20,000 bases of DNA. Origin: an uncultured virus (IMG/VR IMGVR_UViG_3300020407_000003) (lineage: Duplodnaviria; Heunggongvirae; Uroviricota; Caudoviricetes). Location: positions 56,613-76,612 of IMG/VR virus record IMGVR_UViG_3300020407_000003; one strand, written 5' to 3'. Position 1 is the stretch's first letter. The number at the start of each line of letters is the position of its first letter. The notes below the pieces were generated by a model. The model was not told where the DNA came from and did not search any database. It saw only the letters and a list, made by a program, of their open reading frames with translations. Shown here piece after piece: positions 7,540 through 19,563 of the stretch. A program made the translations under genes and the position numbers.

Positions 7540-7583
7540 GCGTTAAGCGACACGTACTAAAGAAATCCCATTATCTGGGTCTT

Positions 7584-7617
7584 AGGCTAGGAGGATTTCC
7601 TCCTAGCTTTATGCCGT
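7584..7617 (+). terminator. Terminator-like hairpin followed by TTATGCCGT
   Basis: GCTAGGAGG-ATTT-CCTCCTAGC perfect stem, ~45 nt after the stop codon. Confidence 0.8.
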
Positions 7618-7622
7618 ATATG

Positions 7623-7900
7623 TATGATGGGATATGCGGTCATTGGTTATCACGCGGGTTGTTGACGTAACATGTGTCTTCCTGCCAATTCGCAATTGAT
7701 AACAGGGTGTAGGTTTTGGGTTGGGCTATTTACCTACACGCCTCTTTTCCAACGCACCATCATGGCACGGTGTTCTCTGGTAGGTTTTTTACCTGATTTT
7801 CCCTACCACTGTACGGTTCCTGGACAGACCGTCACACCTGTAGCTGTTGACCACCAGTGTGGTCGCTGAGAGGGATGGGGTCGTAGGGGCCCCATCCCTA
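7623..7900 (+). ncRNA. Candidate structured non-coding RNA (unknown family)
   Basis: Intergenic, between two terminator hairpins, starting at a TATG (phiKZ late TSS motif). At least six stems found by eye, several with G-U pairs that favour the + strand. Confidence 0.5.
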
Positions 7901-7910
7901 CTTATGCCGT
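7871..7910 (+). terminator. Terminator-like hairpin followed by TTATGCCGT
   Basis: AGGGATGGGGTC-GTAGG-GGCCCCATCCCT, a 12-bp stem with one G-U pair. Confidence 0.8.
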
Positions 7911-7976
7911 CGGGGATGGTATGAATATAATTACCAGCCCATTAATTATGATTAGTATTAACCATGGAATGATATC

Positions 7977-9521: not shown

Positions 9522-10892
9522 ATGCCTTTAATGACACCCCCAAAGCCAGATGCACGTACACGTACCCAGATCGAAGATAAAGCAAAGACGATCAAAGACC
9601 TGGTTACACCTATTACGCATCCAGAAGAAGCTCAGAGAGCACATCTTGAAGAAGTGATAGATACGTCGTATTTACCGACAAACTCTTTACTAGCGCACGT
9701 AGAGGGCTCAGAATGGACGGTTAACTATTACGGTCAAGTTTTAACTAACGGATCTGAGGCAAACCCCCAAGCTTTAACGCAAGATGCAGTACATCAACAG
9801 TATCGTCTAATCACAGGTCTAGCTATTAAAGTAACCAGTGAGATCTCACAAGAGCAGAACGCTGAAGACGGGACATTTACTGTATCAGGCGCAGCCACCA
9901 CTCTACCAGGTCTAGTACCTAATACGGGCGATATGTTCACTGCCGATGTAGGTGATGGTCGTGTTGGTGTATTCACAATAACCAGCTCACGCCGTATGAG
10001 TATGTTAAGAGACACGGTCTACGGTATTGAATACCAGATGACGTCTTTCTTAACCGGTGAGGTAGAACAAGATTTAAGTGAGAAAGTTGTTGAGACGCGA
10101 CATTTCAACAAAGATTATTTACTTAACGGTGAAGATCCTTTTTTAAGTACCAGCGATGCGGTTACTGAGAAAGACCTTAAATCTGATTACTACACGTTAA
10201 TTCAACATTACCTTCAAGCGTTCTACAGTAGAGAATACAAAACAGTACTACTACCTGATAGTAACGGTAATACGGCATCGGTGTATGATCCCATGGTGAT
10301 GAAGTTATTCCATTTGATCATTTCACGTAATGACGTGTTTGGTATGGAATACCCTACTATTAAACAAGTAGGTGGTGACGTTGAAACGGACACCCTCACG
10401 GTATGGGATGCACTACTTAAGCGTGAGCCTGACCTTTTACGCTTTGCTGCAACGCAATATCGTAAAGTCCCTGCCTCTGCCTTTTCCGTTCAACCGTTCT
10501 TCTCATCGATTGCATTAACGGGAATTGAAGAGGTTATTTGGCCTGCCTCTGAGCTGACGCACAAAGAAAAGCAAGCGGGTATTAAACGTAGCTCGCTTAT
10601 CGATGCGTTAGATGACGAGGGTGCTGATAACTATCAAACGCCTGATTCTGTAGATTTCTACGAGCCAGATATGGATGGCTACTATGTATTTAGTAAGCCG
10701 TTCTACGATGGTGATACGGAGTCTATGTCTAAATTAGAATACATGGTTGATCAGTATCTAGATGGGGATAGTCTGCGCTTAGGAGATATTAAAGCTATCC
10801 TAGAGAAGCTTTATCAGGCCACACCACTTCAGCAGTATTATCACATACCAGTGGTATTACTACTGCTTAAAGTCTTTGTTAGGAATTTATAA
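9522..10892 (+). CDS. Putative virion structural protein (phiKZ gp99-like by synteny)
   Basis: 456 aa, AGGAG RBS. Beta-rich N-terminal region (PNTGDMFTADVGDGRVGVFTIT) suggests a head-completion/tail-type fold. Confidence 0.6.
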   Translation: MPLMTPPKPDARTRTQIEDKAKTIKDLVTPITHPEEAQRAHLEEVIDTSYLPTNSLLAHVEGSEWTVNYYGQVLTNGSEANPQALTQDAVHQQYRLITGLAIKVTSEISQEQNAEDGTFTVSGAATTLPGLVPNTGDMFTADVGDGRVGVFTITSSRRMSMLRDTVYGIEYQMTSFLTGEVEQDLSEKVVETRHFNKDYLLNGEDPFLSTSDAVTEKDLKSDYYTLIQHYLQAFYSREYKTVLLPDSNGNTASVYDPMVMKLFHLIISRNDVFGMEYPTIKQVGGDVETDTLTVWDALLKREPDLLRFAATQYRKVPASAFSVQPFFSSIALTGIEEVIWPASELTHKEKQAGIKRSSLIDALDDEGADNYQTPDSVDFYEPDMDGYYVFSKPFYDGDTESMSKLEYMVDQYLDGDSLRLGDIKAILEKLYQATPLQQYYHIPVVLLLLKVFVRNL

Positions 10893-10894
10893 CC

Positions 10895-11461
10895 ATGGCT
10901 AGTAAACCCAAACACTCTAATGCATTTAAACTGTTTAACTATCCCTTTACCATCTGGGTAGCTAACATGTATATGGTGTCTGAAGTTGAAGCAAGAGAAG
11001 TCGGTACTTTTTCAACCGGTAATATGGCAGAAGACCAACAACTTGCCCAACAAGAATGCCGTCGCATGGTAACCATTTCTAAGATGGTAGAAATCGTAGA
11101 GATGGGTGGGAGCTTCAGTTTCATTAACGGTGAAGACGCACAACGCGCCTATGACATCATTGTCGGTCACTTAAGCGACTGGGTGGACGCGATCAATAAT
11201 CGTGTTAACATTCGTCGACCCCCTAAAGATGACCTACGTCAGCTAGATGCATTGGCGGCAATGATCTATAAGAGTGCACGTATTCGCATGGTATCTGATA
11301 CGTCTGTACCTAAGTTAGTACAGAAACTATTGAATATGTCACCAATGGCTACCCCTCAGAAACTTGTTAAGGACAGTGTAGCTAAGGATCACAAACACCC
11401 CATCACCGATATGATAGCGGATGTTGGCGAACTTAGGGATATAAGACGATGGCGGGATTAG
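10895..11461 (+). CDS. Conserved jumbo-phage hypothetical protein
   Basis: 188 aa, AGGA RBS, 2 nt from the previous stop, overlaps the next gene by 13 nt. Confidence 0.6.
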   Translation: MASKPKHSNAFKLFNYPFTIWVANMYMVSEVEAREVGTFSTGNMAEDQQLAQQECRRMVTISKMVEIVEMGGSFSFINGEDAQRAYDIIVGHLSDWVDAINNRVNIRRPPKDDLRQLDALAAMIYKSARIRMVSDTSVPKLVQKLLNMSPMATPQKLVKDSVAKDHKHPITDMIADVGELRDIRRWRD

Positions 11462-12885
11462 TAGATGAAACGGCGCTTTATAACGATGTCATTGATGTCA
11501 TTACCACGCAGTATGACGACGTGGACGAGCGCAAGCGCCCCGATAAACACTATCGTTATCGTTTAGAACTTTACGTTGGTGATACGCCTTACGAGGCGAT
11601 TAAAGTAGTCGCCGTTGATGTACAGCGTGACTTTCAAAACGAGTTTAGTGAATCCCTTATTGTTGAAGCGGTATTAGGTGTGGGCACATACGCCCACGCC
11701 ATCTATCCTAATAAACAAGGACTCACCGCTAAGCTTTATCGACAGTTGGTATTGACGGCAGCTAACGGTAAAATTGTAACAGATAGCGCTGAGGAGTCGT
11801 GGGATTATCAATGCATCATCGTAGGGGACCAGTCCCCGTCAGTCGTGGCATCTACCGAAGCAACATCAGACCAGGAGACCGGAGATCGTTCAGATGTTAT
11901 TAACGTAGAGTTACAACTTATCGAGCAGATTGTTGATGAGTTTCGTGTTGTAGAGGTAGGTGGGATCTTTAAAGACTGCACGGTAAAGCAGATACTTACG
12001 CTATTCTTCGCTAACGTACAGCGTCCTGAAACACCCCCTAGCTCGTTAACGGTAACCTCTGAGGATTATCTTGAATGGCGTCTTAAAAACCTTGTAAGTG
12101 GCGCACACATCATAGAACCAGACAATACGCGTGTCTATGACCACATCGTTATACCTCACGGTACGCGGTTGGTTGACTTGCCTAATTATCTGCAGAAAAC
12201 TTATGGTGTTTATAAGACGGGGATGGGGTATTTCTTCCAAAAGACTATATGGTTTATCTTTCCCGCCTATCATACACGTCGTTATGACAGTGTTGAACAA
12301 ACTCTCACTATAGCTAACTTGCCTGCTAATCGAATGCCTGGGGTAGAAAAGACATATAAGGTCAACGACCCCATTAAACATTACGGTAAGGTTTATATGT
12401 TGGCTACAGGGGATGTGGTGCAGAAAGACCATAGTGAGCGTCGTCAGATGAATGATGGTAATGCCTATTACCACGTCAATGCAGACAAGGTTATGGATGT
12501 GTTCAGTACTACCAGTGCTAACGTAACCACCATTAATGACGAAGACCATGAAGTCCAAGCTGCGGTAGAGAGTCGTATCCATACTAACTTCCTTAAGTTA
12601 AGTAAAGATGCCATTACGCATAACGCGTTTGTTGAAAACAGCAGGCTATCTAGACAAGTAGGCTCTCATGTTCAAATACGTTGGGAGAATGCAGATATTG
12701 ACCAGGTGTATCCTGGTATGCCTGTACTGCTACTCTACATCTTAGATGGTAACGTGGCTAAACTTTACGGCACATTACAGCGTATCGACCAGGACTCTAC
12801 CGCTATAGAACCTGGACCTACCGAACACCGTCATTTAAGAAACGCGGTTATTACCGTTTGGGTAGAGCGTGATAAAACCGATTAA
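11449..12885 (+). CDS. Putative baseplate hub-like virion protein (phiKZ gp101-like)
   Basis: 478 aa. Motifs YLQKTYGVYKTGMG and WENADIDQVYPGMPV are consistent with a contractile-tail hub. Call is from recalled synteny. Confidence 0.55.
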   Translation: MAGLVDETALYNDVIDVITTQYDDVDERKRPDKHYRYRLELYVGDTPYEAIKVVAVDVQRDFQNEFSESLIVEAVLGVGTYAHAIYPNKQGLTAKLYRQLVLTAANGKIVTDSAEESWDYQCIIVGDQSPSVVASTEATSDQETGDRSDVINVELQLIEQIVDEFRVVEVGGIFKDCTVKQILTLFFANVQRPETPPSSLTVTSEDYLEWRLKNLVSGAHIIEPDNTRVYDHIVIPHGTRLVDLPNYLQKTYGVYKTGMGYFFQKTIWFIFPAYHTRRYDSVEQTLTIANLPANRMPGVEKTYKVNDPIKHYGKVYMLATGDVVQKDHSERRQMNDGNAYYHVNADKVMDVFSTTSANVTTINDEDHEVQAAVESRIHTNFLKLSKDAITHNAFVENSRLSRQVGSHVQIRWENADIDQVYPGMPVLLLYILDGNVAKLYGTLQRIDQDSTAIEPGPTEHRHLRNAVITVWVERDKTD

Positions 12886-12918
12886 CCTAAACACCTACAT
12901 TACTAAAAGGAGACTATC

Positions 12919-13071
12919 ATGAGTGATGGTTTTGATGATTTTGATTTTGATATCGACGAAGCAGCACTAGAGCGTGCAAATGCAGAACGTATGGCAGAGC
13001 AAGATGAAGAAGCGAAAGCTTTAACGGAAGGCGATGTCGATGGCTGTGAAGGCGGTGCATGTAAAATCTAA
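12919..13071 (+). CDS. 50-aa acidic mini-protein ending in a ribonucleotide reductase alpha-like CxxxxC tail (DGCEGGACKI)
   Basis: Below the ORF-track cutoff. AAAGGAG RBS, ATG at 12919, TAA at 13069-13071, followed by its own terminator. Sequence: MSDGFDDFDFDIDEAALERANAERMAEQDEEAKALTEGDVDGCEGGACKI. Confidence 0.9.
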   Translation: MSDGFDDFDFDIDEAALERANAERMAEQDEEAKALTEGDVDGCEGGACKI

Positions 13072-13080
13072 AGAACTATA

Positions 13081-13111
13081 GGGAAGACTTTCGGGTCTTC
13101 CCGTTATGCCC
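13081..13111 (+). terminator. Terminator-like hairpin followed by TTATGCCC
   Basis: GGGAAGACT-TTCG-GGTCTTCCC. Confidence 0.8.
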
Positions 13112-13136
13112 TTAAGGAAACTAAAGGTAAAAAATC

Positions 13137-13688
13137 ATGAAAGAAGATATTAAAAAATTATGTCAGTTGCGCGGCGTAATCGTTGAGGTTATATCTAAGC
13201 CGAAACTAACTGAATGTCTAAGTAAAGAACTTGATGAATTAGACATGTCTATACGTGAGCCATTAAGAACTATAGATGACTATATCGCCCTAGCGAATGA
13301 GTTAGAAAACGCTATAACAAAAACTGTGTTTATTGAATCATTACTTGTAGACCATGACGAGATTGATTATGCAAACGGGAAGATGGTTTTTACATCTAAT
13401 CTTAGCGCAGTATTCAGGCGAATACATTGCGCGGTCGTAGTTAATGGACATTGTCTGGTGTCTGTTCATTCTACGTCAGGTCTCTGGTTGTTAACGTTAA
13501 TGCCATACATAACGTCATTAACTCTAGTTCTTGATGAAACTAAATGCTCTGTGATTATAAATAAGCTCGATAATACTACTGACAGCAATCAAGGTATCTT
13601 TAACCAGCCTACCAGTCCGTATAAAGGCATGAAGGCGTGGTCAGAAAACGCGGATTTTACATTTACTAAAAAACCAAGCAAGACTTAA
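13137..13688 (+). CDS. Hypothetical protein
   Basis: 183-aa ORF with AAGGT RBS. No recognised motif. Confidence 0.65.
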   Translation: MKEDIKKLCQLRGVIVEVISKPKLTECLSKELDELDMSIREPLRTIDDYIALANELENAITKTVFIESLLVDHDEIDYANGKMVFTSNLSAVFRRIHCAVVVNGHCLVSVHSTSGLWLLTLMPYITSLTLVLDETKCSVIINKLDNTTDSNQGIFNQPTSPYKGMKAWSENADFTFTKKPSKT

Positions 13689-13702
13689 AGGACAAGTAAT
13701 AA

Positions 13703-14173
13703 ATGGCTAGAATGAAACCCTTAGATGTCAAAGCGTATCAGAGAAACCAAACTCGGGTAGCTCAGTTGTTAGACATCGCTGAAGGGTCACCCGAACCCGT
13801 TAAGGCTTTTAATGCGTTAATGGTAAACCATATCAACAGCGACTTACCCACTGCTCGTAGTTTTAGACGCCAAGCAGTAAAAGGCGAATTCCCTCGCCCC
13901 TTTAAAGCCTGGAATGCCATCGAGCGACTTATGACGCACCATGGGTTAGATGTACGGTTTGATAAAAGTAGTGAAGCTATCTGGCTACATAGACAGCATC
14001 ACCCTCTACACGCTAAAAATGGATTTCCCTTTAGGCGTGATCTTAAACTTACCATGGAGATGATCAACTGGATTAACACCCATCCTTGCATTATTAAACC
14101 AGTAAATCAAACTGCGCTTTTAAAACTAATACAAGCACCTGACTCTCCAATAATCAGGGCAGGTGACAGCTAG
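13703..14173 (+). CDS. Hypothetical basic protein
   Basis: 156-aa ORF with AAGGA RBS. Arg/Lys/His-rich. Confidence 0.65.
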   Translation: MARMKPLDVKAYQRNQTRVAQLLDIAEGSPEPVKAFNALMVNHINSDLPTARSFRRQAVKGEFPRPFKAWNAIERLMTHHGLDVRFDKSSEAIWLHRQHHPLHAKNGFPFRRDLKLTMEMINWINTHPCIIKPVNQTALLKLIQAPDSPIIRAGDS

Positions 14174-14270
14174 TATATAAATACACACTGCCTTTAAACT
14201 ATTATGAGACGTGTTCTTTAAACACGCTTACACCTTTTAAACCAAAATAATAAATTAATGGATTATTACA

Positions 14271-14807
14271 ATGAACAATTCAATCCCTTTAAATACCGTA
14301 TTTCATTCTCCTAAACACCGTGTTGCTGACAACGCTAAGCGTCTGATTACCCTAACTAATCTGTCGCATTTTAAACAAGTTGTAGGCGCACTACATCCAG
14401 CTAAGGGTCTACCTACCGCCTTGGTTGATCAGTACAGCATTGACATGAATGTGTCGTCAGAGTGCGTTACAGCATGTCTGGAGTGGGTGTGTCGTGTAAA
14501 CCGCTTGGACAATGCTCAACTGCGTATCCTTGCGTTAACTAACATCATGTCAGGTCGTCTGTATGAAGAAGACTTGCTGACTAATGTTCATTTAGATGAG
14601 ATCGAGCAATTGCATAACGACCCTCACGCAATAGACCTAACTGCTATTGAAAAAGCAATGAACATCCATCGTACTACTATATGGGATCGCCCTACTATAT
14701 CGTGGTGTGAGATAGAAGCCATGGGGCAGTACGCGCCTACGCTTACAAAAACGTTTTACCGGTTAATTAACGGCAAGGCATTTATTAAAGAAAGTGTTTG
14801 CATATAA
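14271..14807 (+). CDS. Hypothetical protein
   Basis: 178-aa ORF with GGA RBS, after an AT-rich intergenic region. Confidence 0.65.
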   Translation: MNNSIPLNTVFHSPKHRVADNAKRLITLTNLSHFKQVVGALHPAKGLPTALVDQYSIDMNVSSECVTACLEWVCRVNRLDNAQLRILALTNIMSGRLYEEDLLTNVHLDEIEQLHNDPHAIDLTAIEKAMNIHRTTIWDRPTISWCEIEAMGQYAPTLTKTFYRLINGKAFIKESVCI

Positions 14808-14816
14808 GGATAGGTA

Positions 14817-15434
14817 ATGAGCAACAATGCCAATTTAATAACTGTAAGGCAGGAAGCCAACAAAGCCCGGATGTTTTTAAAGCAGTTTCTTGATCCGTCT
14901 TTGGACAGACGAGCAAGTAATTTCATCCAGGGATTCAACAACGTTTACGAAGCATCGCTCAGACAACTAGAAAACTTCCAATTCCGCAACACCTCATCGG
15001 TTACACTAACACACGTTTTTAATACTGCTGAGATCAACGCGTTGGGTCTAAGTGAACCTGCCGCGCGTGTAACTATGGCTGTAGTTAAACACCTGCCATA
15101 CACGGCTATGCAAAATGCCATATATCAAGATCTTGTTAATGAAATTGTAATGTTACCAGATAGCATTCCTACCGTTAAAATAGGTCGTGGTATCTTTGCT
15201 AGGAATAGGAAGTCAGTTATTAACTTCAACGTGATGCTGCAGGATAGGGTATTAGATTGGTATTTGCGCCATATATTAATACTGGGTAACATCCTCATAC
15301 TCGAACGACACGTCTGTACAGGTAAGCCATCGTCCGCTTTACTAAAGGCTTGTGCGGAACGTGCAACGAAGTTTGCTGTGCTATATCAAGAATTATTAAA
15401 ACGCTCACCCCTTTTAAAGGATATAATAAAATGA
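14817..15434 (+). CDS. Hypothetical protein
   Basis: 205-aa ORF with AAGGA RBS. ATGA overlap with the next gene. Confidence 0.65.
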   Translation: MSNNANLITVRQEANKARMFLKQFLDPSLDRRASNFIQGFNNVYEASLRQLENFQFRNTSSVTLTHVFNTAEINALGLSEPAARVTMAVVKHLPYTAMQNAIYQDLVNEIVMLPDSIPTVKIGRGIFARNRKSVINFNVMLQDRVLDWYLRHILILGNILILERHVCTGKPSSALLKACAERATKFAVLYQELLKRSPLLKDIIK

Positions 15435-16204
15435 AACAAAAATCAGTAGGACTATTCACCATACTACTAGCTACCGTTGCTATTGGTATTATCATGTCTG
15501 CAAGTACCGGTTATGCAGCGGACATTCCTAAGTCATTCCCTACCAGTGTAAAATGGATGGTAGAGGACATCCACAAACCCCCATTGAACCAGACGTTTTA
15601 TTGTGGGTGTGCTTTTAAAGATAATAAAAGTGTGGATTATTCAGACTGTGACTATCAGCCTGTTAATATAAACGGCACGCGCGCTAACCGCATTGAAGCT
15701 GAACATGCCATGCCTGCGGTTATGTTAGGTGGTGGGTTAATGTGTTGGGGTGATACACGTAAAGATATTCCTGCGTGTTATGAGTCGGATGGGGATTTGT
15801 TATCATCTAGAGCGTGTTGCGAGAAAACTAACATGATCTACGAGCGGGCGCAAAACGACTTAGTGAATCTAGTGCCCGCCATTGGCGAGCTTAATAACCT
15901 ACGTTCAGACAAGTTGTTTTCAAATATACATGGTGAGGGGCGTGACTTTGGTAGTTGTGATGTTGAAGTCAACCAAGAATATGTAGAGGTGCGTGACGTT
16001 ATGCGTGGGGATGTAGCCCGCATCTTTCTGTATATGTTAGATGCCTACTCATTACCACTTGATATTGTAATAAGCGATAAAGAACTCATGCATCTCTATT
16101 ATTGGGATTTAAAAGACCCCGTGAGTGATGATGAGCGTTTACGTAATCAGCGTATCTGTGAAAAACAAGGTAGTGGTAACCACTACGTAGGTGAATGTGA
16201 ATAA
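15431..16204 (+). CDS. endA: Endonuclease I family (EndA/Dns/Vvn) DNase with signal peptide
   Basis: Motifs TFYCGC, RIEAEHAMPA (cf. RIEWEHVVPA), DLVNLVPAIGELNNLRS, RGDVARIFLYM, DPVSDDERLRNQRI..QGSGNHYV. Likely start is ATG 15431 (AAGGA RBS, ATGA coupling), giving the Sec-type signal MKQKSVGLFTILLATVAIGIIMSASTGYA. Confidence 0.9.
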   Translation: MKQKSVGLFTILLATVAIGIIMSASTGYAADIPKSFPTSVKWMVEDIHKPPLNQTFYCGCAFKDNKSVDYSDCDYQPVNINGTRANRIEAEHAMPAVMLGGGLMCWGDTRKDIPACYESDGDLLSSRACCEKTNMIYERAQNDLVNLVPAIGELNNLRSDKLFSNIHGEGRDFGSCDVEVNQEYVEVRDVMRGDVARIFLYMLDAYSLPLDIVISDKELMHLYYWDLKDPVSDDERLRNQRICEKQGSGNHYVGECE

Positions 16205-17278: not shown

Positions 17279-17310
17279 AAGAAGGGTTAACGCCCTTCTT
17301 TTTTTGCCGT
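17279..17310 (+). terminator. Rho-independent terminator with TTTTTGCCGT tail
   Basis: AAGAAGGG-TTAACG-CCCTTCTT followed by a T-run and GCCGT. Confidence 0.85.
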
Positions 17311-17363
17311 CAATGTTGTATTTAACAGCCCTTAGGGATCTTATAATACTAAGGAGAGTGACT

Positions 17364-17843
17364 ATGGGCGCTGAAGCTATAACGATGTTTAGGGGCGAAT
17401 ATTCGTTCTTAAGTAACTTTTACATATTAGAAACCCCGCTTCCTGAGAACGCTATATTTAAAACACGCTCACATCCCCTGTTTTACTTTGCGACCTCTGA
17501 ACACGCTTACGTAGCCTGTAAGACTGATAATGAAGAGATTCGCAGATATATTGCAAGTCTATATAAACCCGGTGAAGTTAAGCGCTATGGACGATCTATC
17601 GACATCGTAGACAATTGGGATGATATCAGACAAGCATGTATGTGGGATGTGTTATATGCAAAATTCACCTTTAATCCCCATTTAAAAGAAAAGCTACTTG
17701 CTACTGGTGACCGAGAACTAGTCGAAGGGAATTGGCATGGTGATAAATACTGGGGCGTGTGTATGCGCACCGGGGAAGGTAGCAACCATTTAGGACGTAT
17801 GCTCATGGAGCTGCGTGATTACTTTAGAGATATAGAGGAATAA
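17364..17843 (+). CDS. NADAR (YbiA-like) family hydrolase
   Basis: Motifs FRGEYSFLSNFY, SEHAYVACK, AKFTFNPHLKEKLLATGDRELVEGNWHGDKYWG, GEGSNHLGRMLMELR. Likely start is ATG 17364 after AAGGAG. Confidence 0.92.
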   Translation: MGAEAITMFRGEYSFLSNFYILETPLPENAIFKTRSHPLFYFATSEHAYVACKTDNEEIRRYIASLYKPGEVKRYGRSIDIVDNWDDIRQACMWDVLYAKFTFNPHLKEKLLATGDRELVEGNWHGDKYWGVCMRTGEGSNHLGRMLMELRDYFRDIEE

Positions 17844-17845
17844 CC

Positions 17846-18724
17846 ATGATCTTACCAAAGAACTTACCGTCAGCTGAAGTACAGTATCTTGACCTTTTAC
17901 GTACAACCATGGAGCACGGTCACGACATTCGCAATGATCGTACTGGGATGGTCTGCCGCACAGTTACAGGTGCGGTGATGTATTACAATGTAGGAGGGGG
18001 TGAATTTCCTCTTACCACTACACGTAAAAGCTATTGGCGTAAGGCGATTAGAGAACTCTGCGGCTACTTCCGTGGGTTTAGCAGCGCAGCGCAGTTTAGA
18101 GACCTAGGTACTGATAGCTGGGATATCAACGCTAATGAAACACGTGCATGGTTAGATAACCCTCATCGTAAAGGTACGGATGACATTGGTTTGGTTTACG
18201 GAGGCGTAGCTAAACGCTGGCCAACGCATGACGGCCACACCATGGATCTATTTAAAAAGGTCTACACTAACCTTAAAGCAGGAGTAGATGATCGCGGCGA
18301 GATCGTTACGTTTTGGAATCCAGGTCTTTTTGAATTAGGTGCGCTAAGACCATGTATGTATAGCCACACCTTTACACTGTTAGGCGACACACTTCACATG
18401 ACGTCGACTCAGCGTAGCTCTGATGCGTTTTTAGGTGTGAATTGGAATATGATGCAGTGTTATGTTTTCTTAGCGGTAATGGCTAAGATAACAGGTCATA
18501 AGCCGGGTTGGGTTAAACATGACCATAATAACTTCCACATCTACGAAAACCATTTTGAACAGGTGACGGAACAGTTGAGTCGTGATCCCTATGAGATGCC
18601 TACAATAAAGTTAAGTGACCGTATCACGGATTGGGACTATGTGGTTAACCATATGACCGATGAAGACTTTGAGGTAATAGGTTATCAGTCACACCCACCT
18701 ATTTCAGGTAAAATGTCAGCATAA
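17846..18724 (+). CDS. thyA: Thymidylate synthase (Vibrio/Haemophilus-like ThyA subtype)
   Basis: NDRTG, FPLTTTRK, catalytic LRPCM, QRSSDAFLGVNWN (Asn retained, indicating dUMP specificity), HIYENH. Confidence 0.95.
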   Translation: MILPKNLPSAEVQYLDLLRTTMEHGHDIRNDRTGMVCRTVTGAVMYYNVGGGEFPLTTTRKSYWRKAIRELCGYFRGFSSAAQFRDLGTDSWDINANETRAWLDNPHRKGTDDIGLVYGGVAKRWPTHDGHTMDLFKKVYTNLKAGVDDRGEIVTFWNPGLFELGALRPCMYSHTFTLLGDTLHMTSTQRSSDAFLGVNWNMMQCYVFLAVMAKITGHKPGWVKHDHNNFHIYENHFEQVTEQLSRDPYEMPTIKLSDRITDWDYVVNHMTDEDFEVIGYQSHPPISGKMSA

Positions 18725-18945: not shown

Positions 18946-19563
18946 ATGTTGATACCAGATTACGCTATAGAGTCACTTTGTACGGGTGATTGTTCTATCG
19001 AAATTGATGGAACGATTGTCAATAATAAAAAGCGTCCTATGATTGAGCCATTCATTAATACGTCGGTGAAAGTTAACGACAACGATCAACGTATTCCTAG
19101 TTATGGCCTTAGTAGCTTTGGGTATGATGTCCGTCTTGCCCCTGAGTTTAAACTCTTTAGTAAACCTAACGATGGTCGCATTATCGATATCATGAACTTT
19201 GATGAGCGTGAGTTTGTTGAAGAAGTGAAGGCCGACAGTGTTATCCTGCCTCCAGGTGGGTTGTTGCTATCTCGTACAGTAGAATACTTCTCTATTCCAA
19301 ATAACGTCATGGGTACATGTTCTAATAAGAGCACATGGGCACGTATTGGCATGTTTAGTCTGGTAACACCGCTGGAGCCAGGTTGGGAAGGTAACTTAGT
19401 GGTGGAGATCACTAACTGTACTAATCTACCCATGCGTATATACGCAGGGGTGGGTATTGCGCAGATAGAGTTTAAAGCATCTAAGGTCCGCCCAAACGTC
19501 ACTTACGGTGATAGAGGGGGCAAGTACCAGGGTCAGACAGGTATTACCGGCAGTAAGCTATAA
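18946..19563 (+). CDS. dcd: dCTP deaminase
   Basis: SYGLSSFGYDVRL, KSTWARIG, TPLEPGWEGNLVVEI, YGDRGGKYQGQTGIT. Confidence 0.93.
   Translation: MLIPDYAIESLCTGDCSIEIDGTIVNNKKRPMIEPFINTSVKVNDNDQRIPSYGLSSFGYDVRLAPEFKLFSKPNDGRIIDIMNFDEREFVEEVKADSVILPPGGLLLSRTVEYFSIPNNVMGTCSNKSTWARIGMFSLVTPLEPGWEGNLVVEITNCTNLPMRIYAGVGIAQIEFKASKVRPNVTYGDRGGKYQGQTGITGSKL

Follow-up and report, generated by a model that had tools for sequence, protein, structure and literature searches.

Ribonucleotide reductase (RNR) provides the sole de novo source of DNA building blocks. In the class Ia enzyme, electrons from thioredoxin or glutaredoxin are picked up by the dithiol tail of the large (alpha) subunit NrdA, which delivers them into the active site. 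The C-terminal tail of NrdB docks on alpha, and inhibitory peptides have been derived from it. Yeasts have small disordered RNR regulators, namely Sml1, Spd1, Hug1 and Dif1. To our knowledge, how phages devoid of RNR secure DNA building blocks is poorly understood. One survey counted RNR genes in 128 of 685 phage genomes, and the same paper mentions nrdH for phages (PMC3653736). Here we describe a 50-residue phage peptide which is a free-standing copy of the redox tail of the class Ia RNR alpha subunit, a likeness that goes beyond chance when the sequences are compared. No description of a free-standing RNR tail peptide was found in the open-access and bioRxiv literature searched.

The DNA analysed, referred to as the window, is a stretch of 20,000 nucleotides taken from a 76.6-kb record, itself a fragment. 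The window is of the phiKZ-like jumbo phage type and encodes internal head proteins, a gp91-like vertex protein, a tail tube and head-tail joining proteins (Table 1). Translation of the peptide gene gave MSDGFDDFDFDIDEAALERANAERMAEQDEEAKALTEGDVDGCEGGACKI-stop. A first-pass annotation, made from the sequence alone, had singled out this ORF as a 50-aa gene with a strong ribosome binding site, and direct reading of the sequence confirmed the ORF and a good site. The annotation had also granted the gene a terminator of its own; a hairpin was indeed present behind the stop codon, but it lacked a T-run on the + strand and a terminator scan flagged it in the minus orientation only. The start codon, ATG in the window, was GTG in the close relatives L011, L013, L063 and L017 as well as in contigs from four RNA-library runs. 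The upstream gene (478 codons) ended normally at position 12885, as previously described, leaving 33 nt between its stop and the start of the peptide; it is the counterpart of phiKZ gene 101, labelled as a structural protein in some records. Downstream of the peptide gene, the window encodes an EndoI-family nuclease, a NADAR protein, and the ThyA and dCTP deaminase (Dcd) enzymes whose proximity had already been pointed out. No RNR domain was found next to the peptide gene, in line with the earlier description, nor in the entire 76.6-kb record.

Table 1 Features of the peptide gene and its surroundings in the window.
Feature	Position	Strand	Remarks
Shine-Dalgarno AAGGAG	12907..12912	+	6 nt ahead of start codon; read directly
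Peptide gene	12919..13071	+	ATG start; 50 aa; stop within coordinates
Residues 3-13 (DGFDDFDFDID), disordered acidic/aromatic motif	12925..12957	+	Resembles class Ia NrdB C-terminal tails, e.g. ..DDFDDFDL
Residues 14-38, predicted single helix, linker	12958..13032	+	AlphaFold2, mean pLDDT 66.8
Residues 39-50 (DVDGCEGGACKI), copy of the NrdA C-terminal dithiol tail	13033..13068	+	Sequence comparison
G+C-rich hairpin, 8-bp stem, 6-nt loop	13081..13102	+	Just 3' of stop; no T-run on + strand
Thymidylate synthase ThyA	17846..18724	+	PF00303 8.4e-71; phrog_160; dNTP-supply module context
dCTP deaminase-like protein (Dcd)	18946..19563	+	PF22769 9e-28; phrog_1663

Several other features of the window were recorded. 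The Endonuclease I family protein (15350-16204), encoded 2.3 kb downstream of the peptide gene, has a hydrophobic N-terminal segment, and a gene of the same family lies directly upstream of the peptide gene in the relative L010 (L010:1847-2671). The NADAR domain protein (9.6e-28; 17304-17843) is encoded immediately upstream of ThyA. Two large genes are separated by a 437-nt stretch (7540-7976) whose sole frame, of 65 codons, is implausible and which has no tRNA or Rfam match. Searches for tRNA and Rfam families found none in the window, and maturase, protease or exporter genes of the RiPP type were absent beside the peptide gene, both in the window and in 15 related loci.

The peptide ends in ...DGCEGGACKI. 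Comparison with the PDB sequence of E. coli NrdA, which ends in ...DDLVPSIQDDGCESGACKI, confirmed the earlier claim that 9 of the last 10 residues are identical and that the match sits at the true C-terminus. Cys43 and Cys48 of the peptide correspond to Cys754 and Cys759 of E. coli NrdA, with the same CxxxxC spacing. As in NrdA, the acidic C-terminal tail ends in C-x-[GS]-G-A-C-K-I at the true C-terminus. The exact CEGGACKI-stop closes the NrdA proteins of Proteus, Xenorhabdus, Yersinia, Pectobacterium and Shewanella among others, and also those of Pseudoalteromonas, Moritella, Oleispira and Gilliamella. BLASTP extended the likeness beyond the dithiol motif, aligning peptide residues 24-50 to residues 735-761 of Pseudoalteromonas NrdA (13/27 identical, E 7e-6). 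The back-translated motif with its stop codon occurred once in the window and in none of 200 shuffles. The 50-residue peptide contained neither the PF02867 catalytic barrel nor any other Pfam match, and a phmmer search against PDB sequences returned nothing at E<=10. The original reading of the gene as a free-standing RNR redox tail holds, and it extends to a large family. Weak tblastn matches were also seen in 71 Mycobacterium phage records (E 2-10, 40-42.5% identity over peptide residues 14-50), falling on ribonucleotide reductase genes in every annotated record among the matches listed; they hint that the tail likeness may extend to this distant phage group.

Small ORFs with this tail, for which a homologue search had been proposed, were found in large numbers. 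Scanning IMG/VR for C-E-x-G-A-C-K-I-stop identified 63 loci on 63 different contigs: 37 were short frames of 39-130 aa counted from ATG, four were mid-sized (two of 263 aa and two of 360 aa) and 22 were NrdA, complete or cut by the contig end. A 17-peptide profile retrieved 89 proteins of 21-151 aa at E<=0.01, and a 49-row profile run against 1.84 billion cluster representatives retrieved 75 at E<=0.001, none of them of NrdA length. Conservation was analysed on 87 sequences, corresponding to 91 stored proteins minus two NrdA fragments, one truncated and one read-through sequence. Both cysteines and the CK[IL] end were kept in 87/87, and the exact CEGGACKI end in 77/87. Cultured carriers include the Klebsiella phages Centimanus, FBKp24, KpLz-2_45 and relatives, Yersinia phage phiR1-37, the 48-kb Vibrio podophage 275E43-1 and further phage records from Erwinia (25), Salmonella (21), Cronobacter (2), Escherichia (2) and Proteus (1), the protein being annotated as hypothetical in all of these groups. 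Relatives of the peptide matched PHROG families 14561, 24014, 38753 and 10239, all of unknown function (e.g. 1e-44 for L061 and 7e-18 for L025); the window peptide itself matched none of these at E<=0.1 and had no usable PHROG match, and megablast of 2.8 kb around the gene gave no match against cultured phages. The peptide family is wide and undescribed.

The peptide is very acidic, with 17 acidic and 4 basic residues (net charge -13). An AlphaFold2 model built on a 17-row alignment (A1) displayed one helix (residues 14-38) flanked by two low-confidence ends, which suggests a small, mostly disordered molecule with a floppy N-terminus, a single helix and a floppy C-terminus bearing the dithiol. 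The N-terminal end carries a periodic acidic/hydrophobic motif with the same make-up as NrdB tails, an observation that is solid at the level of composition. C-termini of NrdB taken from 70 loci gave 46 distinct 12-mers with the consensus [ED]-V-x-x-D-D-[FL]-[SGD]-D-F-[EDQ]-L; E. coli NrdB ends in ...DTDDLSNFQL. The window peptide begins with SDGFDDFDF and its relative P0004 with MSDFDDFDL, residues 3-9 of which (DFDDFDL) are the last 7 residues of Litoribrevibacter NrdB. Similarly, LDFDDFEL in the L010 peptide can be set beside ...DLDDFEL in Moraxella NrdB. Scored with a profile of the last 8 residues of NrdB, the window peptide (P0001) reached p=0.02 against 2000 shuffles, as compared with p<0.05 for 11 and p<0.01 for 4 of 49 non-redundant peptides. 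Summed scores were 4.6-6.4 sd above shuffles, in a family whose members share the motif partly by descent. Reversed NrdB tails gave z values of 6.5 and 8.8, against 6.0 and 4.6 for the forward tails, and column-permuted profiles gave z 0.5-4.2. Because these order controls scored as well, the likeness of the N-terminus to the NrdB tail is only suggestive. The motif also occupies residues 3-10 of 50, whereas in NrdB it forms the free C-terminus. A predicted complex between Litoribrevibacter-type NrdA 1-737 (30-row alignment) and the peptide (17-row alignment) scored 0.02 against a mark of 0.32, a value that counts neither way. Mimicry of the SSB tip was considered and rejected, the terminal three-residue signature tested being present in 0/87 peptides.

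The genomes that carry the peptide gene were searched for RNR. Locus L013, 99.2% identical to positions 10045-16071 of the window (6 kb sampled), is part of a 190,650-bp record that carries direct terminal repeats (G001). NrdA, NrdB and NrdD profiles found no match in the 190,650 bp of G001. The RNR large subunit (PF02867) was absent from all 27 peptide-bearing phage records searched, which belong to related clades and are thus not 27 independent cases; 15 were at least 90% complete by CheckV and 2 were complete GenBank genomes. NrdB, NrdD, glutaredoxin and thioredoxin profiles matched 0/16 peptide-bearing phage records. As a positive control, the same search recovered NrdA in 5/5 NrdA-bearing viral records. 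NrdA and the free peptide were never encoded on the same contig among the 63 motif-bearing viral contigs.

A survey of 15 related phage loci indicated that the peptide gene sits in dNTP or replication modules. L010 had EndoI just upstream of the peptide gene and ThyA downstream. A dCMP deaminase gene lay 1.2 kb upstream in L015, L025 and L052, ThyA was found upstream in L061, and ThyX adjoined the peptide gene in L047. In L002, the peptide gene was located between a T7-type primase-helicase and DNA polymerase A, and in L004, L009 and L034 its neighbours were 5'-3' exonuclease, RNase H-like or polymerase A genes. L008, L012, L022, L049 and L060 had no informative neighbours. A YAcAr (cpYpsA-related SLOG) gene lies beside the peptide gene in L004 (L004:2654-3004). 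The presence of polymerase A next to the gene in some small carriers raised the idea of a T7-type link between thioredoxin and DNA polymerase, which was set aside since the jumbo carriers have no such set-up.

The C-terminal module, often together with the acidic motif, also ends larger proteins, including the 263-aa and 360-aa types, for which ESM Atlas look-ups yielded nothing of use. It was found on an N4 gp49-family domain in L060 (PF13876, 7.6e-27), on a zinc-ribbon peptide in L012, and on nine cluster representatives of 163-296 aa. The cargo domain of the P0112 type, of about 100 residues, was modelled by AlphaFold2 with a pLDDT of about 90, and Foldseek found no PDB match for it at E<=0.001. 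P0100, of the type with a 100-residue cargo, had no cysteine outside the module (one sequence read), and we therefore suggest that the module is not always the redox shuttle of its own cargo; it resembles a tag directed at a shared partner. Two fusions stand out. In P0119, one of the nine representatives, the module is joined to a cpYpsA SLOG domain (5.7e-14), which together with the L004 YAcAr gene makes a repeated link to a predicted nucleotide-binding fold. In P0155 (89 aa), the first 50 residues of IscU (NifU_N, 1.3e-18) are joined directly to the acidic motif and CEGGACKI, either by a real rearrangement or possibly by an assembly artefact.

Scanning bacterial genomes gave at least 120 loci. 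Among those listed, 14 were free-standing short frames, including nine from Neisseria species, one from Moraxella caprae and one from Thalassolituus maritimus. In Neisseria, a 42-codon ORF (L026:2899-3027) was found directly between iscS and iscU, the operon order being iscR-iscS-ORF-iscU-iscA-hscB; it was downstream of iscS in 3/3 loci of this type (L026, L067 and L105). In one Neisseria MAG the peptide gene lay between valS and an aldehyde dehydrogenase gene. The Thalassolituus gene comes right after cysI-cysJ, and the Moraxella gene adjoins FMN oxidoreductase and luciferase-like monooxygenase genes. In the two genera where its position relative to nrdAB was read, the gene was not next to nrdAB but in the company of sulfur/redox genes. 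NrdA was found in 4/5 bacterial carriers, all four with an intact tail ending in ...DDGC[VA]GGACK[IL]; no match came from the fifth, a 1.7-Mb MAG. The genera named as hosts or bearers are Klebsiella, Erwinia, Salmonella, Cronobacter, Escherichia, Proteus, Yersinia, Vibrio, Neisseria, Moraxella and Thalassolituus, and the same NrdA tail type was read in E. coli, Yersinia, Proteus, Neisseria, Moraxella and Thalassolituus. Some records annotate the Neisseria ORF as a 69-aa hypothetical protein starting further upstream. A Neisseria-type peptide with runs of N on a 778-bp contig labelled Terrabacter (L079), one of the 14 short frames, is probably contamination. NrdA tails in a 23-codon frame of Psychrosphaera algicola (L076) and a 209-codon frame of Pectobacterium (L114) may reflect frameshifts or nrdA assembly errors.

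Collectively, these observations suggest that the peptide probably plugs into host class Ia RNR or its electron donors. Host enzymes are proposed as its targets because the phage encodes no RNR, thioredoxin or glutaredoxin of its own; the NrdA cleft and thioredoxin/glutaredoxin are the likeliest partners, since they are what recognises the NrdA tail in the cell. Our main hypothesis, tentatively given a probability of about 35%, is that the peptide is a trans-acting tail engaging both host class Ia RNR and thioredoxin/glutaredoxin, and that its role is rather a supporting one. Once reduced by host thioredoxin or glutaredoxin, the peptide would move into the active-site cleft of NrdA as a spare tail. 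Docking would be assisted by the acidic N-terminal motif, possibly at the groove that normally holds the NrdB tail, and host RNR would be kept re-reduced while the phage draws on dNTPs. What we infer is that the peptide binds NrdA or thioredoxin/glutaredoxin, where it docks and in which direction it acts. We lean towards a supporting role because of the invariant dithiol, the dNTP-supply neighbourhood and the position of the Neisseria gene in the housekeeping isc operon, a location more in keeping with a helper than with a constitutive inhibitor. Several points weigh against it. An inhibitory rather than a helpful effect would be expected of a ligand of the NrdB-tail groove; the likeness to the NrdB tail lacks order specificity, involves a motif at the N-terminus and reached p<0.05 in 11 of 49 peptides. 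The module borne by larger unrelated proteins, P0100 with its cysteine-free cargo among them, looks more like a targeting tag than a reductant, and the bacterial genes are not adjacent to nrdAB in the two genera where this was read, but lie with sulfur/redox genes. The absence of RNR is confounded by the shared ancestry of the carrier clades, and the phiR1-37 homologue g117 was nearly silent in published RNA-seq (PMC4848604).

We also consider it possible, although somewhat doubtful, that the peptide represents, in its bare form, a portable 'RNR plug' of two parts. One would be an acidic docking motif patterned after the NrdB tail, the other an exact NrdA dithiol tail. Phages without RNR, and Neisseria from its isc operon, would use the plug to attach themselves or cargo domains to host class Ia RNR, thereby controlling dNTP supply.

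The same two ends may instead act as a brake. The peptide would then inhibit host class Ia RNR competitively, in a two-handed manner, and would be to phages and Neisseria what the small disordered RNR inhibitors are to yeasts. Its N-terminal motif would fill the NrdB-tail groove on NrdA and block holoenzyme assembly, and its C-terminal mimic would occupy the route of the NrdA tail or compete for the reductants. We regard this as doubtful in itself but nearly as likely as the supporting tail. The resemblance of the N-terminal motif to NrdB tails speaks for it, although the likeness failed the order controls. C-terminal peptides of the small subunit are classical RNR inhibitors, and the peptide has no radical-transfer part of NrdB, so that it would be able only to block. 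The free peptide is strictly absent from phages equipped with a class Ia RNR of their own that has the same tail type and would be liable to cross-inhibition, and the use of the tail as a C-terminal tag on larger proteins, including P0100 with no cysteine in its cargo, fits a binding module. A brake is harder to reconcile with carriers that have no RNR (0/27), need dNTPs and keep the gene among dNTP-supply genes, or with a copy within a housekeeping operon in Neisseria; the two cysteines, invariant in 87/87, point to redox chemistry rather than to a plug.

The bacterial contexts bring in another alternative, which we hold to be unlikely: a general thiol-redox peptide with no specificity for RNR, acting as a thioredoxin/glutaredoxin substrate, a decoy, a mini-shuttle or a recruiting C-terminal tag, and serving sulfur or iron-sulfur metabolism in bacteria. 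The Neisseria isc, Thalassolituus cysI-cysJ and Moraxella FMN oxidoreductase/luciferase-like contexts all fit this proposal, as do the fusion in P0155 of the module to the 50 N-terminal residues of IscU, the fact that the gene is not next to nrdAB in the two genera where this was read and the occurrence of the tail on several unrelated domains. However, what is copied is the tail of NrdA and not a generic CxxC, and the likeness reaches 27 residues into that tail. In the 15 phage loci the gene was accompanied by nucleotide and replication genes, never by sulfur genes, and the carriers are without RNR.

Sequence evolution indicated that the gene is real. Comparison with L017 gave dS 1.41, dN 0.052 and dN/dS 0.04, synonymous change being saturated and replacement change rare; comparison with L010 gave dN/dS 0.11, again with saturated synonymous change. 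The peptide gene is under purifying selection. The whole ORF was covered by RNA-library contigs from 3 studies; these contigs are not proof of transcription because, at 1.3-9.3 kb, they may represent DNA carry-over. The distant homologue g117 of phiR1-37 (L194:5010-5165), which ends in ...DECDGGGCKI and has its own annotated RBS and terminator, was nearly silent, with RNA-seq means of 3.91 early, 1.51 middle and 1.16 late, and had no temporal class assigned (Table S2, PMC4848604). Phage phiR1-37 is a deoxyuridine-DNA phage, g117 has the tail variant CDGGGCKI, and a sigma-type promoter is listed ahead of it. A functionless ORF, either decaying from a captured nrdA 3' end or arisen by chance, could account for the alignment of the last 27 residues with the NrdA tail and for the near absence of g117 transcripts (PMC4848604). 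We find either highly improbable: dN/dS of 0.04-0.11, a start conserved as ATG or GTG, 75 cluster representatives spread over very different phages and bacteria and the absence of the motif from 200 shuffles argue against chance and decay.

The split RNR initially put forward, in which the peptide would serve, in trans, a tail-less NrdA encoded by the same genome, has nothing in its favour beyond the tail itself and is refuted for the window lineage, leaving it next to no likelihood, given that G001 encodes no NrdA, NrdB or NrdD, that PF02867 was found in 0/27 carriers, none of which encodes a tail-less NrdA beside the peptide, and that the four NrdA proteins of bacterial carriers have intact tails.

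If the proposed function is correct, a cheap and widespread peptide that copies an enzyme tail would be a new way for viruses and some bacteria to tune RNR. The RNR plug, if true, would give bacteria and viruses their first equivalent of the small RNR regulators of eukaryotes, and would provide a clear example of an enzyme's own tails being mimicked by short motifs. The carriers include cultured Klebsiella, Erwinia, Salmonella, Yersinia and Vibrio phages, which makes the idea testable at once. The copy in the isc operon of Neisseria hints that iron-sulfur status, thiol redox and the supply of DNA precursors may be linked in a so far unrecognised way. A function assigned to the peptide would extend to several PHROG families labelled unknown: PHROG 14561, 24014, 38753 and 10239 are matched by relatives, whereas the window peptide matches none of them at E<=0.1, and they have neither name nor function.

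Among known systems, the phage-encoded thioredoxins, glutaredoxins and NrdH-type redoxins that serve RNR are similar in being accessory thiol-redox genes of nucleotide metabolism. Unlike these proteins, the peptide has no thioredoxin fold or CxxC and copies the tail of the client, not the reductant. The yeast regulators are also small and largely disordered, and, as for them, the action proposed for the peptide targets the large subunit by competing with the C-terminal cysteine tail of that subunit; they are not known to copy the tail itself, no sequence relation is expected, and the searches run revealed no bacterial or phage member of this type. NrdB tails and the inhibitory peptides derived from them share with the peptide an acidic stretch and two hydrophobic or aromatic residues three apart, but in the peptide the motif is N-terminal, the match is good in 11/49 only, and reversed or permuted profiles score similarly. 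The NrdA tail has in common with the peptide the last 8 residues, identical in many gammaproteobacteria, the same CxxxxC spacing, the same C-terminal position and a preceding acidic run. In contrast to that tail, the peptide is encoded by a separate gene without a catalytic domain, in phage genomes without RNR, and bears an N-terminal motif and a helix that are both missing from NrdA tails.
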